From the NCBI GenBank assembly GCA_049999805.1, contig JBNGIO010003079.1:53401-73400 (forward strand): DNA of 20,000 nt, given 5' to 3'. Shown piece after piece: positions 2,012 to 15,800 of this stretch. Under the pieces are notes generated by a model, which saw only the letters and a list, made by a program, of their open reading frames with translations, was not told the DNA's origin and ran no database searches. Position numbers and translations under genes: made by a program. Source of the DNA: Folioceros fuciformis (taxonomy: Eukaryota). The number at the start of each line of letters is the position of its first letter. Positions within the stretch are counted from its first letter, which is position 1.

Positions 2012-2743
2012 AATAGTTATTAACTATTGAACCATGTATAAGTACGATGTTTAGTGGCACAACAAGTCAGAGAACAAGATGTGGGTAAAGAGAGCCTAGT
2101 GATGCTAAATCACTAATTACACAATCAAAGGGGCCTAAGCATATGTTGTTTCTCCAAAAGCTGTGCAGATATTGCTTCTCCAAAAGTTGTACAAGGCTCT
2201 TGTACAAATCTCTTAGCTTAGACAACAAAAACTAGAGACTGAACAATTGTATGAAAAAGGTACCCCAATAGAAGGAGGGGATAGGTGAGATGCACACCAA
2301 ATCCCCCACCAAAATATTTCTAAATGAATGTGGAGCCCAACTACGACCGCAACCACGTTGGAGACCGACCATGACACAATGTAATCCCTCCATGAAGAAA
2401 GATAACACCTTTTGCACTTAAGGGGAAGAGGTAAAGAGGAACAACAATCCAAAGTGGTTATGCGGAATAATAAATTGGAGAGGAAATGTAACCTGGTGAG
2501 CGATAGAAGCTGAGTCGGGCGCCTATGTGGATCACAACAAACAGCATACTGTACGTACGTACGCATATATATGTTGGTAGTGGGCCAACGTCGAACACTA
2601 AACGCTAGCCTAGGGTTGATGTTATTGCTTCGTTTGCCGGCACTAGGCCGAGGGTGCGATGACGACGACGGGCTGGAGGGGCAGGAAGGACGAGGCCTGT
2701 AGGATCTGAGCGGCGCGGTGGATCGGGGACAGCGCCAGCCGCC

Positions 2744-5700
2744 ATGGCGTCGGTGCGAGAGCAGGCGGTTGCTCTGCTCAACGACGCCAAGCTCCAGGCG
2801 GACTCGTCGTCCAGGGTGGATCACCTGAAGCAGTTGATGGAGCTGGTGCTGTACCGGGATCCCGACCTGCTGGGGGAGTTCGTGCCGCACTTGCTGGAAT
2901 TCCAGTGTGAGCGGGGCTGGTTCCTGCGGAAGTACCTGGCGGAGGTGGTGGAGCTGGTAGGCATGAAGTTCTTGAAGCACGTCCCGGTGATGGTGCCGGC
3001 TCTGCTGACGCTACTGAGGGATTCGGCGGCTGCGGTTGTGCAGCGGGCCATCATCACCGCCACGCATCTCTTCGGCTACACCTTCGAGCAGCTGGTTTTG
3101 CAGGGGATCTACTCACGGCAGGTGGAGAAGTGGCTGGTTGATGCCTGGGCGGGCATGCTGAAGGTGAAGGAGGTGGTGCTCACCACCGTGGTGTTTGACG
3201 GCAACGACGTGATCCGGCTGCATGCCATCAAGTTCGTGGAGAGCGCCATTCTGCTGTTCACGCCGGATCCTAACAGCTCGGCCCGGCCCTCGCTGCAGGC
3301 GGAGGGCGCGTCCAAGGAGTGCAACGTGGCGTGGATCTCGGGAGGTCATCCCATCCTCGGCGCCAGTGAATTAGGTCAAGAAGCCAGCCGGAGCCTGGGG
3401 TTGCTTCTGGGCCAATTGAGGGCTCCAGATGTGTCGTCTCTTCCCGGCCCTGTCGCCATTGTCTTGTTGAACAGCTTAGGTAATATTGCAAAGAAAAGGC
3501 CCACCCTTTTCGGAAGAATTCTGCCTGTCTTGATTGCTTTAGGTCCCAATTGCGACGCCATCAAGGGATCTCAGGTCACCAGCGTCATCCACACTCTTAG
3601 AACCAATTTGCTAGGGTTGCTCAAGTGCACGCATCCCGGAGCTGCTCCCTGGCGAGAGCGCCTGGTCGACGCGCTGCGGGCGATGAACGCCGGGGACTCT
3701 GCGGAAGCCGCCCTTCGCCAGGTCGGACGGGTGCTGCGTGGGGCTGACAGGGAACCGGGAGGGGTTGTGGATCGACGACCTGCCGCTCCTGCTGCCAAGG
3801 ATGAGCGGTTGCAGGTTTCCTCGTCTCTCTTCATCAACTCCACGGACGCTGGGCGCAAGAGAGCCATGGTGCACGAGAATGGGAGTCAGGCAGGGGATGT
3901 GGAGGATTTGGTCAAAAGGTTGAGGCCGAATCCTTCGGCTGCTGCTGGTGCTGCGATGGCTTCCTATCTCTCGCATATGCAATCGGAGGGGCAGCGTAGG
4001 GTTCTGGGATTGAACGGGAAGGGAGCGGGAGCGGTCTCCCTGCAGCAGCAGATCAATTCCATGATCGCAAATGTGGTGTCGCAGGGGGGGCCGTATGAGG
4101 CGACCGTCGATGTGCTCATCGGCAGCATCCCGCCGGAAGTGCTTGTGGACATTGTCGTCGGTAATATGATTTACTTGCCCACGCGCCCGCCTGCGCAATC
4201 TTTAAATCCCGCGGCCGATTCCGCATATTCTGTGGACGGACCAGCCGCGACGGCTGGCCTGCGATTCCAGCAGTCTTCGTCGCATTTTGTTGTCGACGGT
4301 CGGCCGCAGCATCTGGAATCCCGTTTGCAACCTGATCTTCGGCGGGATCCAAGACGTGGGCTGGTTGCGGGGACCAGTCCATCTTTAGAGATAGACGCGG
4401 GAGTAGGAGGAGTTGCGGGCGTAGGGGCAGTAGTAGCGAAAATCGAGAGAGCGGATCTGGTGAAGATAGAGGAGTCGACATACCCTGGCAGCAGAGATCC
4501 CAGGGGAGCGGGTCGGGGTCAGGCATCTCATTTGCCTACGGCTAAATTCAGGCCTATGCCCATCAAAGTGGAGTCAGTTGACAATGCCCCTCAAGCTCAA
4601 GGAAGTGAGGATGGAGCATCTTCAGCAATGGGTTTATACGGAGATCTTTTAAGGCCCCCTTTAGTCATATCTGCTCACTCCGTTCCCCCTTCACATATCC
4701 TCAGGCTTGAGGATCTCACCACTGCGCTCAGTGCTGCTAAAGAGGGACAGCGTAGTGTTGCGACGTCCGTACCAGGGCCTATACCTGTTCTCCCTCTCCA
4801 CGTTGAGCAGCAGTCTGCCCTTTGCAAGAGGGCTGTCATGCGAATTTTGGAGAGTTACAAGGCTGTTGAAGCTGCGGGGAGAGGTGACTTGCGCATGGCA
4901 ACGCTTGCTCGATTGGTGTCTCAGTCTCGAGAGGATGGTGTGCTGGATGTGTTCCGGAAGTATTTGTTGGCAGATTATCATGGCCACAAGGGTCATGAAC
5001 TTGCTTTACATGTGCTCTATCAGCTCTATGTGGGGCAAGCTTTCGATTCGGACAGCCCTCCAAACCTTTCGGAGATACATCCTGCTTATGAGAGTTTCCT
5101 TCTCTCACTGGCTGAAGGTCTCAAAGACACACTGCCTCCTTCTGACAAGTCTTTGAGTAGATTATTTGCAGAGTCACCAGTGCTACCTGGATCAGGTCTC
5201 AGGTTGCTCGAAGGTCTTTGCATTCCCTCCTCTCAGGTAAGGGATGAGAAGGAAGTTTTGAGTGCCGAACGCATAACCCAGGGGCTAAGTATTATTTGGA
5301 GTCTCATTCTGCAGAGGCCTCCAGTCAGGGAGACCTGTTTAAGAATTGCACTGCAGTGTGCAGTACACGAGCATGAGGCTGTAAGAACTAAGGCTATCCG
5401 ACTTGTTGCAAACAAGTTGTTTCCTCTTAGCTATGTTGCACCCAAGATAGAGACCTTTGCAACAGACATGTTGCTTTCTGTTGTTGATCCGAGAGAAGTG
5501 CCTGGTAAGGTACAGGACAGCATGGATGTAGATGCATCGACCATAGTACAGGATATGGAAACCAAGATGATGAGTGACCAGGTGAATGGCGTGGAAGCGA
5601 AACAGAGTGACGTTTTGGGTTCTGTTGTTGCTGATGAGATGACTGGTGGGGATGATGGTCAGAGGAGCAAGAGCAACCCAGCTGTGACAACGGCAGAGGC

Positions 5701-6694
5701 ACAACGTTGCATGTCTCTCTTTTTTGCCTTGTGCACCAAGAAGCATGCCCTACTAGGGCAGCTGTTCAGCGTATACGGCCGTGCCTCCAAGGAGTTCAAG
5801 CAGGCTGTGAAGCAGAGGATGCCACTTGTTGTGCGATCCATAGGGGCCTCATCTCCTGAGCTACTGACCTTAATAGCCAATCCTCTGCCTGGCAGCTCAA
5901 ATCTGCTGCTGGGCGTGTTGCATAGCATTTCGGAAGGCGGTACAATGTCCCAGGAGTTGATCTCCACAGTTAAACAACTGTATGAAAAGCTCCATGATGC
6001 TAGTTTTCTTATCCCAATTCTGTCCTCTTTTTCTAAAGAGGAGGTCTTGCCCATCTTTCCCCGCCTGGTGGAGTTGCCGCCAGAAACTTTCCAAAGCTCT
6101 CTCGATCGCATTCTGCAGGGTTCTGCTCATTCTGGTCCTGCAATGACACCAGCAGAGGTTCTACTTGCCCTCCATGATATTGATCCTCGTCGAGACGCAT
6201 TGCCATTGAAGAAGATAACAGATGCTTGCTCAGCCTGCCTTCAGCAGCGAACGGTGTTTACGCAACAGGTTCTGGCAAGAGTGTTGAATCAGATGGTTGA
6301 ACAGACTCCACTTCCTTTGCTTTTTATGCGGACTGTGATTCAGGCGGTAGGTGCTTTTCCTTCTCTTGTGGACTTTGTCATGGAAATACTCTCAAGACTT
6401 GTTAGTAAGCAGATCTGGAAAACTCCAAAGTTGTGGGTCGGTTTTCTCAAATGTGCAAATCAGACTATGCCACGCTCATTTCATGTATTACTGCAACTTC
6501 CAGCGCTTCAGTTGGAGGATGCTTTAAACAAACAGCCCACCTTGAGAGCTCCTTTGGCTGCCCATGCGATGAAACCAAACATCAGGGCAAATGTTCCTCG
6601 ATCATCTTTAGTTTTGTTGGGGATTGTCCAGGATGGTCCAGCTCCTGATTCTGTTGCCCCAAGTGCTACAGCACAGGCAGAAATTCCAACATGA
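2744..6694 (+). CDS. Symplekin / ESP4-like pre-mRNA cleavage and polyadenylation scaffold protein, single-exon CDS, 1316 aa
   Basis: Uninterrupted ORF with gccATGg context. It has a HEAT-like symplekin N-terminal domain (AIKFVESAILLFTPDP, IAKKRP.LFGRILPVL, LLKCTHPGAAPWRERL), RDPR motifs in the middle linker, and a Symplekin_C region (SLFFALCTKKH, QGSAHSGPAMTPAEVL, EQTPLPLLFMRTVIQA, WKTPKLWVGFLKCA). Confidence 0.93.
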   Translation: MASVREQAVALLNDAKLQADSSSRVDHLKQLMELVLYRDPDLLGEFVPHLLEFQCERGWFLRKYLAEVVELVGMKFLKHVPVMVPALLTLLRDSAAAVVQRAIITATHLFGYTFEQLVLQGIYSRQVEKWLVDAWAGMLKVKEVVLTTVVFDGNDVIRLHAIKFVESAILLFTPDPNSSARPSLQAEGASKECNVAWISGGHPILGASELGQEASRSLGLLLGQLRAPDVSSLPGPVAIVLLNSLGNIAKKRPTLFGRILPVLIALGPNCDAIKGSQVTSVIHTLRTNLLGLLKCTHPGAAPWRERLVDALRAMNAGDSAEAALRQVGRVLRGADREPGGVVDRRPAAPAAKDERLQVSSSLFINSTDAGRKRAMVHENGSQAGDVEDLVKRLRPNPSAAAGAAMASYLSHMQSEGQRRVLGLNGKGAGAVSLQQQINSMIANVVSQGGPYEATVDVLIGSIPPEVLVDIVVGNMIYLPTRPPAQSLNPAADSAYSVDGPAATAGLRFQQSSSHFVVDGRPQHLESRLQPDLRRDPRRGLVAGTSPSLEIDAGVGGVAGVGAVVAKIERADLVKIEESTYPGSRDPRGAGRGQASHLPTAKFRPMPIKVESVDNAPQAQGSEDGASSAMGLYGDLLRPPLVISAHSVPPSHILRLEDLTTALSAAKEGQRSVATSVPGPIPVLPLHVEQQSALCKRAVMRILESYKAVEAAGRGDLRMATLARLVSQSREDGVLDVFRKYLLADYHGHKGHELALHVLYQLYVGQAFDSDSPPNLSEIHPAYESFLLSLAEGLKDTLPPSDKSLSRLFAESPVLPGSGLRLLEGLCIPSSQVRDEKEVLSAERITQGLSIIWSLILQRPPVRETCLRIALQCAVHEHEAVRTKAIRLVANKLFPLSYVAPKIETFATDMLLSVVDPREVPGKVQDSMDVDASTIVQDMETKMMSDQVNGVEAKQSDVLGSVVADEMTGGDDGQRSKSNPAVTTAEAQRCMSLFFALCTKKHALLGQLFSVYGRASKEFKQAVKQRMPLVVRSIGASSPELLTLIANPLPGSSNLLLGVLHSISEGGTMSQELISTVKQLYEKLHDASFLIPILSSFSKEEVLPIFPRLVELPPETFQSSLDRILQGSAHSGPAMTPAEVLLALHDIDPRRDALPLKKITDACSACLQQRTVFTQQVLARVLNQMVEQTPLPLLFMRTVIQAVGAFPSLVDFVMEILSRLVSKQIWKTPKLWVGFLKCANQTMPRSFHVLLQLPALQLEDALNKQPTLRAPLAAHAMKPNIRANVPRSSLVLLGIVQDGPAPDSVAPSATAQAEIPT

Positions 6695-10281: not shown

Positions 10282-11595
10282 CAGGGTTTCCCTCAGGTCT
10301 ACAAATTCTCCGCTCAAGCAGCCGACTAATCTGTTGATGATATCCCCATATAGCACCGATAACTGCTTGTCTTCGGCTATCCTAATGCCCTAGCCAGGCG
10401 CCAGCATTTAGTGGGATCCCAGTCGCACATGCACGTGCCAACAGCTCCTGCCTATCCCCTCAGGGAGCTTCAAGTGATTTCGGAGAATTGTTTCGTACTC
10501 TTTCGATTCCGTTCCTTGTCAACAGAGCCGTACAAGCAACTGTGGAGCTTCTGCTAAGGATCCAGCACCGGGCCAGGACCGTGCTCCGCAGGCCCTCCTC
10601 ATTTCTTCATTCGATAAATGCTAAGACAGTACACAGATTGAGGCTTCGACAAATTCTTTGTATTCTTGTGTGGTAGAGGACTACTAAAATGAAGGCAATT
10701 CTGAGCACAACAGTAGCTTTCTAGCATAGCACACAAGGCGTTGTCTGTGATAAACCCGAACCCCGAGCAACCTCAAGCTTGGTGGTCCTCTGGTTGGCCA
10801 AAGTACTCTACCGCGAGGAATGTACCGCGCCCTCCCTCCTGGCCACGCATTTTGAATAGGTCAAGTACAATTCGAACGTTGCTATAAGATACTAGCGGCA
10901 CACTTCTCTTGCGGGACCAGCTTCCCTCCCACGTCAAAGATTTCGTTGTTGTCTGAAGCTCCTCCAGAGTACCATGGCCGGGGTGGTCAACAAATCATCA
11001 GCAGGAATCGTAGGGTTTGTCGAAGCTATTCGCGAAGGTACTTAGGGCTTGTCTTATTGCCTTAACGAGGCTGCTACTTTCTCCACCCATAGATTATGAT
11101 CGCCTACTTCTTGAGGCTTCGGGGACAGGCCAAGCCTTGCGCGCAACGCCCTCTCTCCTTTCCATCCTCCCAGTAATTCATGCATGCCTCAGTATGGGGA
11201 AGGAGAGGAGAGAGGGTAGAAAGGAGCAGCTTGTAGCCCTTGCCACAGCCACCACGTCTCTTGCTGGATCCGGTGGGCAATAATTCGGACGTAGTCAACT
11301 CTCTTATCCTCTTGCATGGCGTGCTTCAAGAGCAGGACGCTGTATGGAACTTGGGATGGCCCTTGTGTTTTACCCGATGCTTAGCTGGGACATTCCCTGC
11401 ACCCTCTTGTCTGAAACATCATGTACTTCGTGGCCGTCACTCTGCAGCCTTGCTGCGACACTAGAAAGAAATGGACCTGAATCCTGATGACACCATAGCC
11501 GTTTCCTGCATCCGGCAACTTGGATGGGAGTTCTTCAGTTCTCCGAGAAGTTTAGTGTGTAAACCGTGCAGAACCGCTCTCTGCCGGAGCCTTCA

Positions 11596-12108
11596 ATGGC
11601 GGGATTAAGCTGCGTCAATCTACTTTTGCCTTTGCCGCTGCCAACGCCTTGTAACACGCGCCGGTGGCAATGCCGGCGCGGCGTACGAGCCTCCAACAAT
11701 AAGGATAGGTCGAATTACATAGAGATAGGCAGTGCGAGGAAAGACCTTGGGGACGCGGTGGAGATTCGGCTGAAGAGGCCCGTTGAGCCGCAAACAAGAA
11801 CCTCGGCCAGGGGCAAAGCTCCCCCGCCTACCGTAGTGGTCCTGCCAAAGGTGGATTCGCCTCCGGAGCAGCAGACGGTGATAGTGGAGGCCACCAGGAG
11901 GGGCCGTGGAGGGAAGACAGTGACCATAGTGAAGGGTTTGCAGCTGCGGCTGGAGTCCATGGAAGCTCTGTGTAAGCAGCTCAAGACCAAGCTAGGTACC
12001 GGCGGCTCTGTCAAGGACGGGCAAGTGGAGATCCAAGGCGACCACACGCAGAAGCTGGTGGACGAGCTCGGGCAGCTGGGATACAAGGCCAAGAAGTCTG
12101 GAAGGTGA
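11596..12108 (+). CDS. Bacterial (cyanobacterial)-type SUI1/YciH translation initiation factor-like protein with putative plastid transit peptide, intronless, 170 aa
   Basis: ATG at 11596 (tcaATGg). C-terminal SUI1 domain PPEQQTVIVEATRRGRGGKTVTIVKGL...LCKQLKTKLGTGGSVKDGQVEIQGDH...LGYKAKKSG. The first ~36 aa contain no acidic residues and end in RRGVRAS. Confidence 0.88.
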   Translation: MAGLSCVNLLLPLPLPTPCNTRRWQCRRGVRASNNKDRSNYIEIGSARKDLGDAVEIRLKRPVEPQTRTSARGKAPPPTVVVLPKVDSPPEQQTVIVEATRRGRGGKTVTIVKGLQLRLESMEALCKQLKTKLGTGGSVKDGQVEIQGDHTQKLVDELGQLGYKAKKSGR

Positions 12109-12801
12109 AGATAGTTTGCTTCATCTCCCCCCTCTGTGTATCGATCAAGGCTCTGTTGGGAACAGCACTAGTGTAGCACACTATTGTACCTGGATTCCCC
12201 ACGAAGCTTGGTAGAAGTACATCGTCCACTGAGAGACAGAGATCGTACATAGTCATCTTACAAAAGGAAGACATCGTCATCCTATACCAGAAACGGATTT
12301 TGCAAAAACATGCGGATACAGTCCAGAAACATGGATTCCGTTTGTGAAGGGGCGTTTTTGTCTGAAATTGCTGCGGAGAGGATGTGCTGGAAGGCCGGCG
12401 ATAAAGAAAACTGTAGACGGTTTACGGATTGTCGAAGAACAGGATCAGTTGCCACCTACTTGTCTTTTAGGGGAAAGACTTCGCTACGCTGTCGTCAGAC
12501 ATTGATTTTAGACTGTCTTGTTGTGCAACATTTGAAGTCCGGCTGTAAAGGTCCTGCTTGAAAATGGAGTTCCCTTTCATCAGCTGGTACCAAAAGAGTT
12601 TCCAGCACTGCATGATGCAGGCGTGATGGAGGGTACAAGAATGCAAGGAACATTGTTGATAATTTAGAGCTGATTTTCTCTCTCATAACTAGCGAGACTT
12701 ATCACGCTTCTAAGGAGACCTTGACGCTTGAATAGAGGAATTCAGGAATCGAGAAACCCAAAACCCTGCACTGGCCCGCTGGGGCTTGCTCGAATTTGGC
12801 C

Positions 12802-15800
12802 ATGGAGGCCGCAGTGGTAATGCCACTGGCGGGCTGCTGCCGCCCGGCACAGGCTCCTGACGACCTGGCTCCGCTCAGCTCCTCCAGGTCGCTCCTTCAG
12901 GATAGCCCTCTGCTTCGCAGACTCAGACTGTGCAACTTGGCGCCTGTCTGGAAATTCAGAGGACGAAGTCCAGGGAGGATTGTGACGGCTGCGAGGAAGC
13001 AGCTCTTCATTGATTGGTTGCAGGAAGATAATCAGCCTAACAAGGGCAATGAACCTGAAAAGAATGAGGTGGTGGAGATTCTTGAGGTGAGACAACCACG
13101 GTGTAGGCGTATGCATTGTGTGTGACTCGATTGCGGTTTTGGAATGCAATTTTGGAAAAGAAAAAAAATGCGTTTGTGACTCTGCTTGCCGTAATGGTGA
13201 TCCAACTGTTGGTGAACAGAGTGTGAGGCAAGCAGAAATACAGCGGGTGGGGGAGCTTGATGAAGCGAAACGAGTTCTGGACCTGCAACTGCACAGGGAG
13301 GCAGTGATGCTCTCTAGCTGGGAGACGTTTTTGCAAAAATTTCAGGGGAAGCTCAGAGGAACGGAACACGATCCTATCCCTTCCCATGATATTCCCTTCA
13401 GTGATTTCTTGAACCTTTTGGAAGACAGCAGGATTCAGTATCTGAATTACAAGGACCTTGGTCGTGAGACTTCAGGCAAGTCATTGATGCTTATGTTCAA
13501 TTCTTCAGGGTGAGCCCTTGTAGGTGCAGCTGTTGTCGCTGAAACTTTGCAATTGCAGTGGTGCTGCCGTACGTGGAAGAAAATGAGGAAGGGACATCTG
13601 CTGAAACCCAGAAGGAGAAGGATTTGACTGAGCCGCCTGTTGTGTACAAGCGCCATACAGTGGAACACATGCCAATTGATGCCTGGAATGATGTGTGGAG
13701 GAAGCTTCATGAACAGCTTGTTCATGTGGAGGTGGAACATCCAAACGTCTTTACGCAGCAAGTCTATCCAACCATTGAGACTGCACTAGTGTGGGCGCTG
13801 CGGCTCTTTGTAGCTGTGAAAGTGTACAATTGGATCGATAGCAAGCTTTATCCTATCTATAAGCTGAAGCCTCTAGACAGAAGGCCTGTCAAGCGGCGAC
13901 CAAAGCTTGGTTCAGGCGATTCAGATCTAGGCGCTCTAGGGCAAAGTCGGTATGTGATCTCTGTCTTTAGGGGTGATGGTAACCAGTGGATGACTGGAGG
14001 TAGGATAGCTTCGGGACCTGCTGACTTGAAATTGGGTGCCTTTCTACAGTGCAAGGTTCATATCAGCAGAGGAGAGCACTGGTGTGACTTTTGACGACTT
14101 TGCAGGGCAAGAATATGTTAAGCGAGAACTCCAAGAAGTTGTTAACATTCTGAAGGATGACAAAGAGTTTGAAGACCTTGGCATCTATTGTCCGAAAGGA
14201 GTGTTGTTGTATGGTCCGCCAGGGACTGGCAAAACCCTGCTTGCAAAAGCTATTGCTGGTGAAGCTGGGGTTCCATTCTTTTCTGCAAGTGGCTCAGAGT
14301 TTGTGGAGGTTATCTGTTTGATGGCTTTTCCACTTTGCTTGGTTGATTAGTCATTACAGTCAGTCTGCTGACATACCATCTCTGTTTGCCTTGTGGCAGA
14401 TGTTTGTTGGTGTGGCTGCAGCTCGTGTACGCGACCTCTTCAGTCGTGCTCGGCAGTTTGCGCCATCTATTGTTTTCATCGATGAGATAGATGCGATTGG
14501 TGCAAAACGTGGAGGGCCTGATCTTGGAGGGGTAACGGCTGATAGTCGTTAGATTGGCGTTTTGATTGCAGGGTGGTGTGGAAAGAGCATAGTTTTGGTT
14601 GCAGGGTGGTGTGGAAAGAACATAGTTTTGGTTGCAGGGTGGTGTGGAAAGACCATAGTTTTGGTTGCAGGGTGGTGTGGAAAGAACATAGTTTTGGTTG
14701 TAGGGTGGTATGGAAAGAACATAGTTTTGGTTGCAGGTTCCTGGAATTGAAGAAAGGAGTTGTTTTGACTTGCCCTTTTGCAGGGTGGTGTGGAAAGAGA
14801 ACAAGGTCTGGTGCAAATATTGACGGAGCTTGATGGTTTTCAAAGTCAGAGTACGAAGGTATATCATTTCTTCTAGTGCCCATTTAAGGAGAGTTGAGTG
14901 CTTGCAGCTTATGTGCAGCAGTATTATTTGTGCTCAATCCTCATGGTCTTGCTTTCAGGTTCTGGTTGTTGGGGCAACCAATAGGCTTGACATGCTGGAT
15001 CCTGCGCTATTGAGGAAAGGACGCTTTGACAAAACCATTGGAGTTGGTCTACCGACTGAAGAAGGGAGATTAGCCATCCTTAAGGTCCTTATCATTAACT
15101 TGTGAGGGGTGCATCTACGGTGTCTATCTCTTGGAGGACTGCTGGAATGATGTTTACTTGAACAGGTTCATGCAAGGAACAAGATGTTCCGATCAGATGC
15201 AGAGAGAGAGGAGTTGCTTCAAGAAATTTCGAAGCTTACCTACGATTTTAGTGGAGCAGAACTTCAAAATGTCCTGTGAGAACGGCACTTTTACGCTCCT
15301 GGAGTTGAGTAATACATGCGCATAGTGTGTTAACTGCTTTCTGTCTGGAAGCCTGGCAGAAATGAGGCCGCTATCTTAGCTGCTCGAAAGGATAAGGACC
15401 TTGTTGAAAGGGCGGAGCTTTTGGAGGCTTTGAAGAGAGTAAGCCGTTGTGTTGCTGTTGCATATTCTCAACTCGGGTGGAAAATGTTGTCTTGTCTGCA
15501 TCCAGAACAGCAGCCCTGTCATGTCGTGTCTTTTCTCTGTTCTTTCCCTTGGTGTTTCGAACAGTTCTTTCCATTCTGGCTGAAAGATACGTCCACCGTT
15601 GCAGCAAGAAGGCTCCTTTTCGACTGGAGAGGAAGATGTTGTCGATATAACAGGAGAAGCGAGGCTCAGAATTGCCTACAGAGAAGCAGCTATAGCTGTG
15701 CTAGAGTGCTGTGTTCCCAACCGCCACAGGCCATTCACAAAAGTGGGTACATCTAATCACCTGATTCTCGAGATTTCAGTCGTCTTCAGCGACACTGAAT

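Follow-up and report, generated by a model that had tools for sequence, protein, structure and literature searches.

An expressed nuclear YciH-type SUI1 gene of Folioceros fuciformis and its leader-bearing relatives in green algae and bryophytes: a candidate plastid translation factor

Background

Initiation of translation in plastids is described with three factors, IF1, IF2 and IF3, mostly from angiosperms and Chlamydomonas. Does the nuclear genome of a green organism also encode a YciH protein of cyanobacterial type that could act beside them? The question is raised by a single open reading frame (ORF) of Folioceros fuciformis, at positions 11596-12108 of a 20,000-nucleotide stretch of contig JBNGIO010003079.1 (positions 53,401 to 73,400 of the forward strand; the whole stretch is called the window). 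An initial annotation, made from the letters alone, read this ORF as a nuclear gene for an apparently plastid-targeted YciH/SUI1 protein and left two origins open, endosymbiotic gene transfer and acquisition from a Nostoc-like cyanobacterium. It also called the protein uncharacterised, and full-text literature searches indeed returned no study of a plant or plastid YciH.

Here we describe the gene, its relatives and its transcripts. The ORF is an expressed eukaryotic nuclear gene, and its product is a eukaryotic offshoot of the known cyanobacterial YciH family that appears to be old in the green lineage. On balance we think it probable that the product is an orthologue of cyanobacterial YciH that is imported into the plastid and acts on initiation at the plastid 30S subunit. 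The alternatives for its origin, location and role are weighed below with the evidence that bears on each.

Results and discussion

The SUI1 domain is of the YciH-aIF1 type

The coding sequence and the regions of its product are as follows.

11596..12108, + strand: complete YciH/SUI1-like coding sequence, 170 amino acids (aa) plus stop, single exon
11596..11691, + strand: transit-peptide-like presequence, residues 1-32, ending V-R-A before S33 (cleavage and import predicted)
11713..11730, + strand: conserved motif N40-Y-I-E-I-G45 of the predicted mature protein, from alignments
11731..11865, + strand: low-complexity basic/Pro-rich linker, residues 46-90, with a predicted local distance difference test score (pLDDT) of 51-81 and no secondary structure
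11866..12087, + strand: SUI1 domain (PF01253), residues 91-164, including the basic beta1-beta2 loop TRRGRGGK (residues 100-107)

All the motifs quoted in the initial annotation are found in the protein. Residues 89-110 read PPEQQTVIVEATRRGRGGKTVT and residues 134-150 read GTGGSVKDGQVEIQGDH; DRSNYIEIG occupies residues 37-45, RGVRA/S spans residues 28-33 (the slash marks the putative cleavage site) and the protein ends in QLGYKAKKSGR. The Pfam model PF01253 is matched over its whole length (positions 1-77 of 77) with an E-value of 1e-17 and 64.8 bits, above its gathering cut-off of 25.5. The NCBIfam models rank NF005669 (PRK07451) first at 112.4 bits, followed by TIGR01158 (YciH) at 100.4, NF005297 at 88.9, NF002096 at 70.4 and NF006536 at 62.4, and the DENR/DRP1 model TIGR01159 scores only 22.5. 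The sequence matches in the PDB at E <= 1 are limited to two archaeal aIF1 proteins and E. coli YciH, and no eIF1 chain is matched at that threshold. The E. coli YciH match covers residues 92-169 at E 6.9e-9, with 39.5 bits against approximately 100 for cyanobacterial proteins.

The predicted fold agrees with this placement. In an AlphaFold2 model based on an alignment of 55 sequences, residues 91-170 have a pLDDT of 90-97 and the order beta-beta-alpha-beta-beta-alpha-beta, while residues 1-70 (pLDDT 50-64) have no secondary structure. Foldseek places archaeal aIF1 first (5jbh and 4mo0, template modeling (TM) score 0.81-0.82), then E. coli YciH (1d1r, TM 0.76, 38% identity), and eIF1 chains rank after both (TM 0.55-0.72, 18-28% identity). 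Nine residues are invariant across the 55 eukaryotic and bacterial sequences: G106, K107, V109, L129, G136, G137, Q147, G148 and G162. From the model scores, the PDB sequence matches and the Foldseek order, the domain is of the bacterial/archaeal YciH-aIF1 type and not eIF1 or DENR, as the initial annotation had held.

An expressed eukaryotic nuclear gene

Contigs of four public runs were placed on positions 10400-13600 of the window. A single contig of the DNA run X2 spans the whole interval and lacks spliced joints. Run X1 carries the same organism label (A) as X2. Runs X1, X4 and X7 carry joints of the neighbouring AAA/FtsH-like gene (13084 to 13218, with GT..AG borders, and 13472 to 13556) and leave the introns uncovered, and for these two reasons we take their contigs to derive from spliced RNA. 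The RNA nature of the three runs thus follows from the joints, and the contigs give no transcript ends, strand or level.

10937..12722, strand unassigned: transcribed region, one collinear 1786-nt contig (run X1, record 2), 0 differences, no joint

Since the X1 contig is identical to the window and collinear with it across the ORF, the ORF is transcribed and has no intron, which bears out the initial annotation on both the 170-codon frame and its lack of introns. In a second organism (B; X4, record 6) a 1215-nt contig aligns to 11477-12266 and 12426-12600 at approximately 90% identity with no joint inside the ORF. In a third (D; run X7) several contig pieces lie over the ORF at roughly 90% identity.

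The setting is also eukaryotic. The neighbours in the window are a symplekin homologue, a minus-strand GTPase of the 50S-ribosome-binding type that is split into exons, the AAA/FtsH-like gene with GT..AG introns and an HSBP1 exon; the window holds no long bacterial-style gene array. GC content at third codon positions (GC3) is 0.71 in the YciH ORF and 0.57 in a symplekin-like ORF of the window, against a mean of 0.42 in 73 cyanobacterial homologue stretches. Patterns of bacterial promoters or terminators are not overrepresented.

These results leave next to no room for the reading that the ORF is a cytosolic eIF1 or DENR paralogue, or cyanobiont DNA contaminating the assembly. The SUI1 fold is common to all of these proteins, which is what such a paralogue has in its favour. 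However, eIF1 chains go unmatched in the PDB by sequence where aIF1 and YciH are matched, and the DRP1 score of 22.5 bits is far below its cut-off of 118.15. Contamination was considered and rejected, as one DNA contig links the ORF to intron-bearing eukaryotic genes, RNA-derived contigs of it occur in three organisms and bacterial promoter and terminator patterns are not in excess.

Two side observations concern the transcripts. The X1 contigs 10400-10943 and 10937-12722 share only seven bases (10937-10943), in the interval that separates the minus-strand GTPase from the YciH-like gene. Head-to-head transcription from a common promoter region could account for this, and so could a very long 5' leader of approximately 660 nt. 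Run X7 contains two diverged versions of the middle part of the gene (11706-11926), one (record 9) with 14 differences, no gaps and a depth of 69.6, the other (record 10) with 28 differences, indels summing to -6 and a depth of 26.8. This suggests two copies of the gene, or a mixed or polyploid sample.

Leader-bearing relatives span the green lineage

A word-indexed search of 5.8 billion proteins gave 3566 matches, of which the best 120 were examined. The best 14 are all N-extended proteins of 144-199 aa, and those with organism names come from Ceratodon, Physcomitrium, several species of Sphagnum, two of Riccia and Marchantia. The closest match, P0002, has 169 aa, is 64% identical and shares the start MAGLSC with the window protein. 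From rank 16 onward the matches are proteins of 106-140 aa that are 45-65% identical over the C-terminal half. About 30 of the 120 (counted by eye) are prokaryotic with an organism name, and all of these are Cyanobacteriota. Over the domain, identity is 57-60% to Nostocales proteins, 65% to Lyngbya and 63% to Coleofasciculus.

Exact look-ups and two more searches added N-extended members from Coleochaete scutata, Closterium, Mesotaenium endlicherianum, Chlorokybus atmophyticus, Tetraselmis, Prasinocladus and Pyramimonas. In addition, 1.84 billion cluster representatives were scanned exhaustively with HMMER (2781 matches at E <= 1e-3; the best 150 examined, and 37 of those with at least 150 aa retrieved). 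Orthologues with leaders therefore span mosses, liverworts, streptophyte algae and chlorophytes. Databases label them only as "SUI1 domain-containing" or "hypothetical". The best 120-150 matches of each search include no vascular plant, red alga, glaucophyte or secondary alga with a name; algal members that score lower may lie below these ranks, and the result stands for not found among the matches listed, not for absence. A 225-aa N-extended relative, P0016, gave no close named relative when used as a query, and vascular-plant membership is neither shown nor excluded by it.

On the bacterial side, the signature [EQ]A[TS][RK][RK]GR[GA]GK occurs in 180 stretches of 185,579 prokaryotic species genomes, and 135 of these encode relatives of the window protein. 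By title, 78 of the best 80 are cyanobacterial. A sample of the cyanobacterial phylum had a match in 74 of 201 genomes. The cyanobacterial affinity proposed in the initial annotation is thus upheld, both by the named prokaryotic matches and by the full-length agreement of named cyanobacterial proteins with NF005669 (below).

Some fragments among the moss-type matches have a different end. P0122, P0125, P0130 and P0131 leave the family sequence after EIE(I/L)Q, before GDH, and continue into unrelated residues. Because they look like ORFs that read into an intron, the SUI1 domain of moss genes seems to be interrupted by one, unlike the intron-free gene of the window.

An old gene of probable cyanobacterial origin

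Trees were built from a domain alignment of eukaryotic, named cyanobacterial, cyanobacterial-phylum sample and representative sequences. A quick tree used 148 rows, after removal of every second representative (50 of 101) and of P0272, which equals the Pyramimonas row over the domain. A careful tree used 74 of the 148 rows, picked by hand, and the rows dropped include the long or compositionally odd L126, L127 and L128.

In the quick tree, a clade with a support of 97 in the Shimodaira-Hasegawa-like approximate likelihood ratio test (SH-aLRT) contains 37/37 named cyanobacterial, 24/30 phylum-sample and 18/19 eukaryotic rows. Inside it, 66 rows form a cyanobacterial crown (support 87) that leaves out the eukaryotes, and Nostocales lie deep in this crown. 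The eukaryotes are again outside the sampled crown in the careful tree (85/79). There, Coleochaete, the Mesotaenium group, the window protein with P0002, the mosses and the liverworts form a streptophyte clade (99/97), in which window+P0002 (98/95), mosses+liverworts (99/89) and liverworts (100/98) are each recovered. The window protein falls outside mosses+liverworts, a placement compatible with a hornwort. The streptophyte clade follows the species tree roughly, which is the pattern expected of vertical descent.

Two constrained topologies were compared on the 74-row set with the approximately unbiased (AU) test. Grouping the window protein and P0002 with seven Nostocales, a hypothesis set before any tree was built, is rejected (delta log-likelihood 47.7, p 0.018). 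Placing all 22 eukaryotic rows in one clade is not rejected (delta log-likelihood 0.52, p 0.475). By these alignments the gene is old in the green lineage, with data compatible with a single eukaryotic origin.

Of the two origins proposed initially, acquisition from a Nostoc-type cyanobacterium therefore fails. Recent horizontal acquisition from symbiotic Nostoc by the lineage of the window is highly improbable, for although Nostocales proteins are 57-60% identical over the domain, other cyanobacterial orders are equally close or closer. Leader-bearing orthologues also occur in mosses, liverworts and green algae, and GC3 is far from the cyanobacterial mean. We reject this origin on the 99/97 streptophyte clade, in which the window sequence is placed, and the AU test.

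An endosymbiotic-transfer gene lost in some lineages, the other origin proposed, is favoured by the green-lineage distribution and by the same streptophyte clade. A more serious competitor, which we still regard as unlikely, is horizontal transfer from a free-living cyanobacterium into an early ancestor of the green lineage, with the leader gained afterwards. It would account for the named eukaryotic holders being all Viridiplantae, with the red algae, glaucophytes and secondary algae missing among the matches listed, and it profits from a tree backbone that is supported at 68/21 only. On the other side, the position of the eukaryotes outside the sampled crown in both trees is as expected of a gene of the plastid ancestor, and weaker algal members may lie below the ranks examined. 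The 74 matches in 201 sampled genomes indicate that losses of YciH are common, so that loss in red algae and glaucophytes is no heavy assumption. Endosymbiotic gene transfer is the most simple route into the green lineage, and an origin in the plastid ancestor and an early transfer from another cyanobacterium are inseparable with these data.

A separate observation concerns the bacterial part of the tree. L121, L123, L124 and L128, from genomes of 1.7-2.7 Mb in the cyanobacterial phylum (G144, G112, G188 and G178, respectively), form a group of their own (100/98) apart from both the crown and the plant clade. YciH in the cyanobacterial phylum is for this reason not monophyletic in the short alignment.

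The leader fits a stromal transit peptide

The N-terminal extension is not found in bacterial homologues, is variable in sequence and is poor in acidic residues. Cyanobacterial YciH proteins have 10-35 residues, a conserved VY.EFG, about 15 residues and PP.QQ before the domain, and no leader homologous to that of the window protein was found before VY.EFG in them. The initial annotation had pointed to a lack of acidic residues and a cleavage-like junction, and both are found: acidic residues start only at position 37 (0 D/E before it), and V-R-A precedes S33. The leader starts with MA and contains five Arg/Lys and four Pro in the first 34 residues, of which the first 21 are uncharged and Pro-rich. 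It has a pLDDT of 50-59 and no helix in the AlphaFold2 model.

Leaders of the relatives vary in length and sequence; most of those in the bryophyte rows have approximately 31-52 residues, and algal ones are longer. What the bryophyte rows have in common is the junction, V-x-A and then (G/S)(D/N)NK. The cleavage-like site is VRA/S in the window protein and CRA/S, VYA/G, IYA/G, VFA/G, VVA/G, VIA/G or VRA/G in bryophyte-type orthologues, followed by (D/N)NK. A V/I-x-A/C motif before the mature N-terminus is a stromal processing-site motif, and these are typical transit-peptide properties. The leader and its junction, as read from the sequences, fit a stromal transit peptide, and import of the window protein into the plastid is inferred from them.

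Downstream of the junction, bryophytes share the NYIEIG motif in the form N(F/Y)I(D/E)IG, and streptophyte algae share it in the form F-I-G. The initial annotation had likened it to cyanobacterial VY.EFG. Profile alignment of the N-terminal parts with hhalign does pair YIEIGS with cyanobacterial YQEFGN, but over 6 columns only, with E 0.54 and a probability of 0.1%, which is not significant. The pairing of motifs stands as a positional resemblance and is not evidence of homology. The linker that follows is approximately 30 residues longer than in cyanobacterial YciH in the alignments.

The same protein, with the same origin, might instead be imported into mitochondria or into both organelles and act on the small subunit of the mitoribosome, a variant to which we give a low probability. 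Ribosomes of bacterial type are also found in mitochondria, and the leader has features in common with mitochondrial presequences, being short, lacking acidic residues and having its Arg towards the end; no localisation data for the protein were found in the literature. Against this, the closest relatives are cyanobacterial and not alphaproteobacterial, and the named holders are all photosynthetic green organisms. An MA start, an uncharged, Pro-rich and non-helical leader and a V-x-A junction are more in keeping with stromal processing than with an amphipathic mitochondrial helix. The protein (Mp2g19900 in Marchantia) goes unmentioned in the main text of a Marchantia plastid-proteome preprint.

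A possible role on the plastid 30S subunit

Under the plastid reading that we favour, a cyanobacterial YciH gene would have come into the green lineage at an early date, with endosymbiotic gene transfer as the simplest route, and would have been inherited vertically since and kept in chlorophytes, streptophyte algae and bryophytes. The leader of approximately 32 residues would serve as a transit peptide, cleaved after V-R-A (Ala32). The mature protein of approximately 15 kDa, a disordered N-terminal region followed by the SUI1 domain, would reside in the plastid stroma. Its basic beta1-beta2 loop (TRRGRGGK) might attach it to the plastid 30S subunit in the platform/P-site region, at the site of eIF1, aIF1 and the C-terminal domain of IF3. 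This site is proposed because aIF1, the best structural match, sits there in archaeal complexes. By its title, a 2006 paper by Lomakin and colleagues concerns "reciprocal activities of eIF1, IF3 and YciH", which implies overlapping activities there. The effect may be discrimination against non-canonical initiation complexes, or damped initiation under stress, as proposed for bacterial YciH; the second option follows the NCBI family name "stress response translation initiation inhibitor YciH". Binding of the window protein to the 30S subunit is inferred from the predicted fold, and conservation of the basic loop and the core in the 55 sequences supports an action there.

The known systems frame this proposal. 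Cyanobacterial YciH (NF005669, PRK07451, "translation initiation factor") is the nearest, with 55-65% identity over the C-terminal 80-100 residues, the best model score, the signature PP.QQ...(E/Q)A(T/S)(R/K)(R/K)GR.GKTVT, the ending LGYKAK.SG and an upstream aromatic-x-(E/D)-(I/F)-G whose N-terminal match is not significant. The window protein differs from it in being nuclear-encoded, in its leader and longer linker, in GC3 and in scoring below the equivalog cut-off. E. coli YciH (1d1r; TIGR01158/NF006536) shares the fold, but it is more distant than the cyanobacterial proteins, has no leader, and its family model NF006536 gives the window protein 62.4 bits against a cut-off of 142. Archaeal aIF1 (4mo0, 5zcy, 5jbh) has the SUI1 alpha/beta fold and the basic beta1-beta2 loop in common with it. 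The aIF1 chains were solved on the small subunit near the P site. Identity to aIF1 is approximately 33%, eIF1 is matched by structure only, and both act on archaeal or cytosolic ribosomes.

Plastid IF3 is the established fidelity factor of plastids and is described for plastids in general. It would share the proposed small-subunit site with the window protein, but it belongs to an unrelated fold and family, and proteins of the window type were found here only in green algae and bryophytes. Chlamydomonas also has a protein named SUI1A, which we take to be the cytosolic eIF1. A Chlamydomonas proteomics paper tables it among subunits of eIF2 and eIF3.

An organelle-imported protein might also work off the ribosome, as a general stress-related regulator or an RNA-binding protein, and we hold this to be about as improbable as a mitochondrial location. 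The title of a 2015 paper by Osterman and colleagues doubts a fidelity role of YciH. An E. coli yciH knock-out changed the expression of 86 genes, according to a passage of PMC7818426 that cites Osterman 2015. The plant linker is basic and longer than the cyanobacterial one, a further feature in favour of such a role. On the other hand, there is little or no variation at the SUI1 core and basic-loop residues among the 55 eukaryotic and bacterial sequences, and the fold matches best the ribosome-bound aIF1 chains.

Points that weigh against the plastid reading

Several results count against the reading that we favour. The first concern the family models. The window protein misses the equivalog cut-off of NF005669 (112.4 against 122 bits, over profile positions 30-115 of 116 only) and that of TIGR01158 (100.4 against 111.65 bits), and the N-terminal third of both profiles is unmatched. 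The shortfall is attributed to this diverged, unmatched third. As its scores lie below the equivalog cut-offs, we file the protein as a eukaryotic offshoot of the cyanobacterial YciH family and not as a strict equivalog.

Control scans put these scores in perspective. Proteins of Nostoc, Leptolyngbya and Lyngbya match NF005669 end to end with 177-201 bits. In all 5 plant and algal orthologues tested, NF005669 is the best model, with the other models in the order seen for the window protein, and is matched over the C-terminal two-thirds only; Coleochaete (122.4 bits) and Chlorokybus (122.3) just pass its cut-off, and Physcomitrium (110.4), Marchantia (96.6) and Tetraselmis (89.9) fall below. 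Two bacterial representatives score best on NF005297 and not on NF005669. The TIGR01158 cut-off is not discriminating here, because two of three true cyanobacterial proteins (106.7, 109.7 and 113.9 bits) also fall just short of it.

The remaining points concern the trees, the distribution, the leader and YciH itself. Only 85 alignment columns were usable for the trees. In the careful tree the backbone among eukaryotes, cyanobacteria and a few representatives has the low support given above, and in the quick tree Closterium, on a long branch, lies outside the group that holds the other eukaryotes. Transfer at the primary endosymbiosis is not demonstrated, since no red-algal or glaucophyte member is among the matches listed. 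The vascular-plant absence is likewise a matter of not being found among those matches. The leader is short (approximately 32 aa) and has only four Ser/Thr, and the ribosomal role of YciH is itself disputed.

Implications for plastid translation

The origin and family of the gene are ordinary for an endosymbiotic gene. Given its phyletic pattern, and with functional studies lacking, it is a reasonable and testable candidate for a plastid translation factor that has been overlooked. A conserved, expressed YciH with a leader, found in chlorophytes, in streptophyte algae and in bryophytes, with no named vascular plant listed, would add an initiation factor to the known set. Tentatively, and with rather less than even confidence, we suggest that plastid initiation in green algae and bryophytes involves a fourth factor, of YciH type, beside IF1, IF2 and IF3, and that this factor was lost when vascular plants arose or later. 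Other cyanobacterial features, such as flavodiiron proteins and plastid peptidoglycan, are kept by non-vascular green organisms and were lost later.

If this is true, the three-factor description, being based on angiosperms, would be of a derived, reduced state, and the additional factor could be a fidelity factor or a stress brake on plastid translation. Marchantia and Physcomitrium would offer a genetically tractable eukaryotic setting in which the disputed role of YciH could be settled. If the protein proves to be mitochondrial or inert, what is left is a gene of endosymbiotic origin that is annotated but unstudied.

Other features of the window and of the family

Three further features of the window are listed here.

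2663-6694, + strand: symplekin homologue (SYMPK_PTA1_N and Symplekin_C domains), 1343 codons, one open frame
11471..11608, + strand: upstream ORF of 45 codons, ATG-started, out of frame, covered by RNA-derived contigs
14559-14737: tandem repeat, 33 bp x 5.4 copies, 95% matches

The symplekin homologue is apparently a single exon of approximately 4 kb, with a GC content of about 0.60 over its first 2 kb against 0.49 in the window. The upstream ORF stops 13 nt inside the YciH-like coding sequence and overlaps its ATG. It is possibly a regulatory upstream ORF, only if the mRNA starts upstream of 11471. The tandem repeat is in the stretch occupied by the AAA/FtsH-like gene, flanked by exon-like frames that end at about 14350 and start at about 14824. 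A scan of the window with Rfam gave 0 matches.

Of the other long matches in the HMMER scan, most are bacterial and have an N-terminal domain that is different and not recognised. Many representatives of 172-268 aa, apparently bacterial, have a conserved N-terminal domain of approximately 100-150 residues fused to YciH/SUI1 (P0156, P0166, P0170, P0176, P0177, P0180, P0183, P0184, P0188, P0197, P0210, P0211, P0213-P0215, P0222, P0228, P0238, P0254, P0257, P0260, P0264, P0265 and P0268). The fusion linker resembles L(I/V)(V/A)RL(I/L)L.GGKR, and Pfam recognises only the SUI1 part in the five of five proteins tested. By these sequences, the N-terminal domain looks like an undescribed domain partner of YciH.

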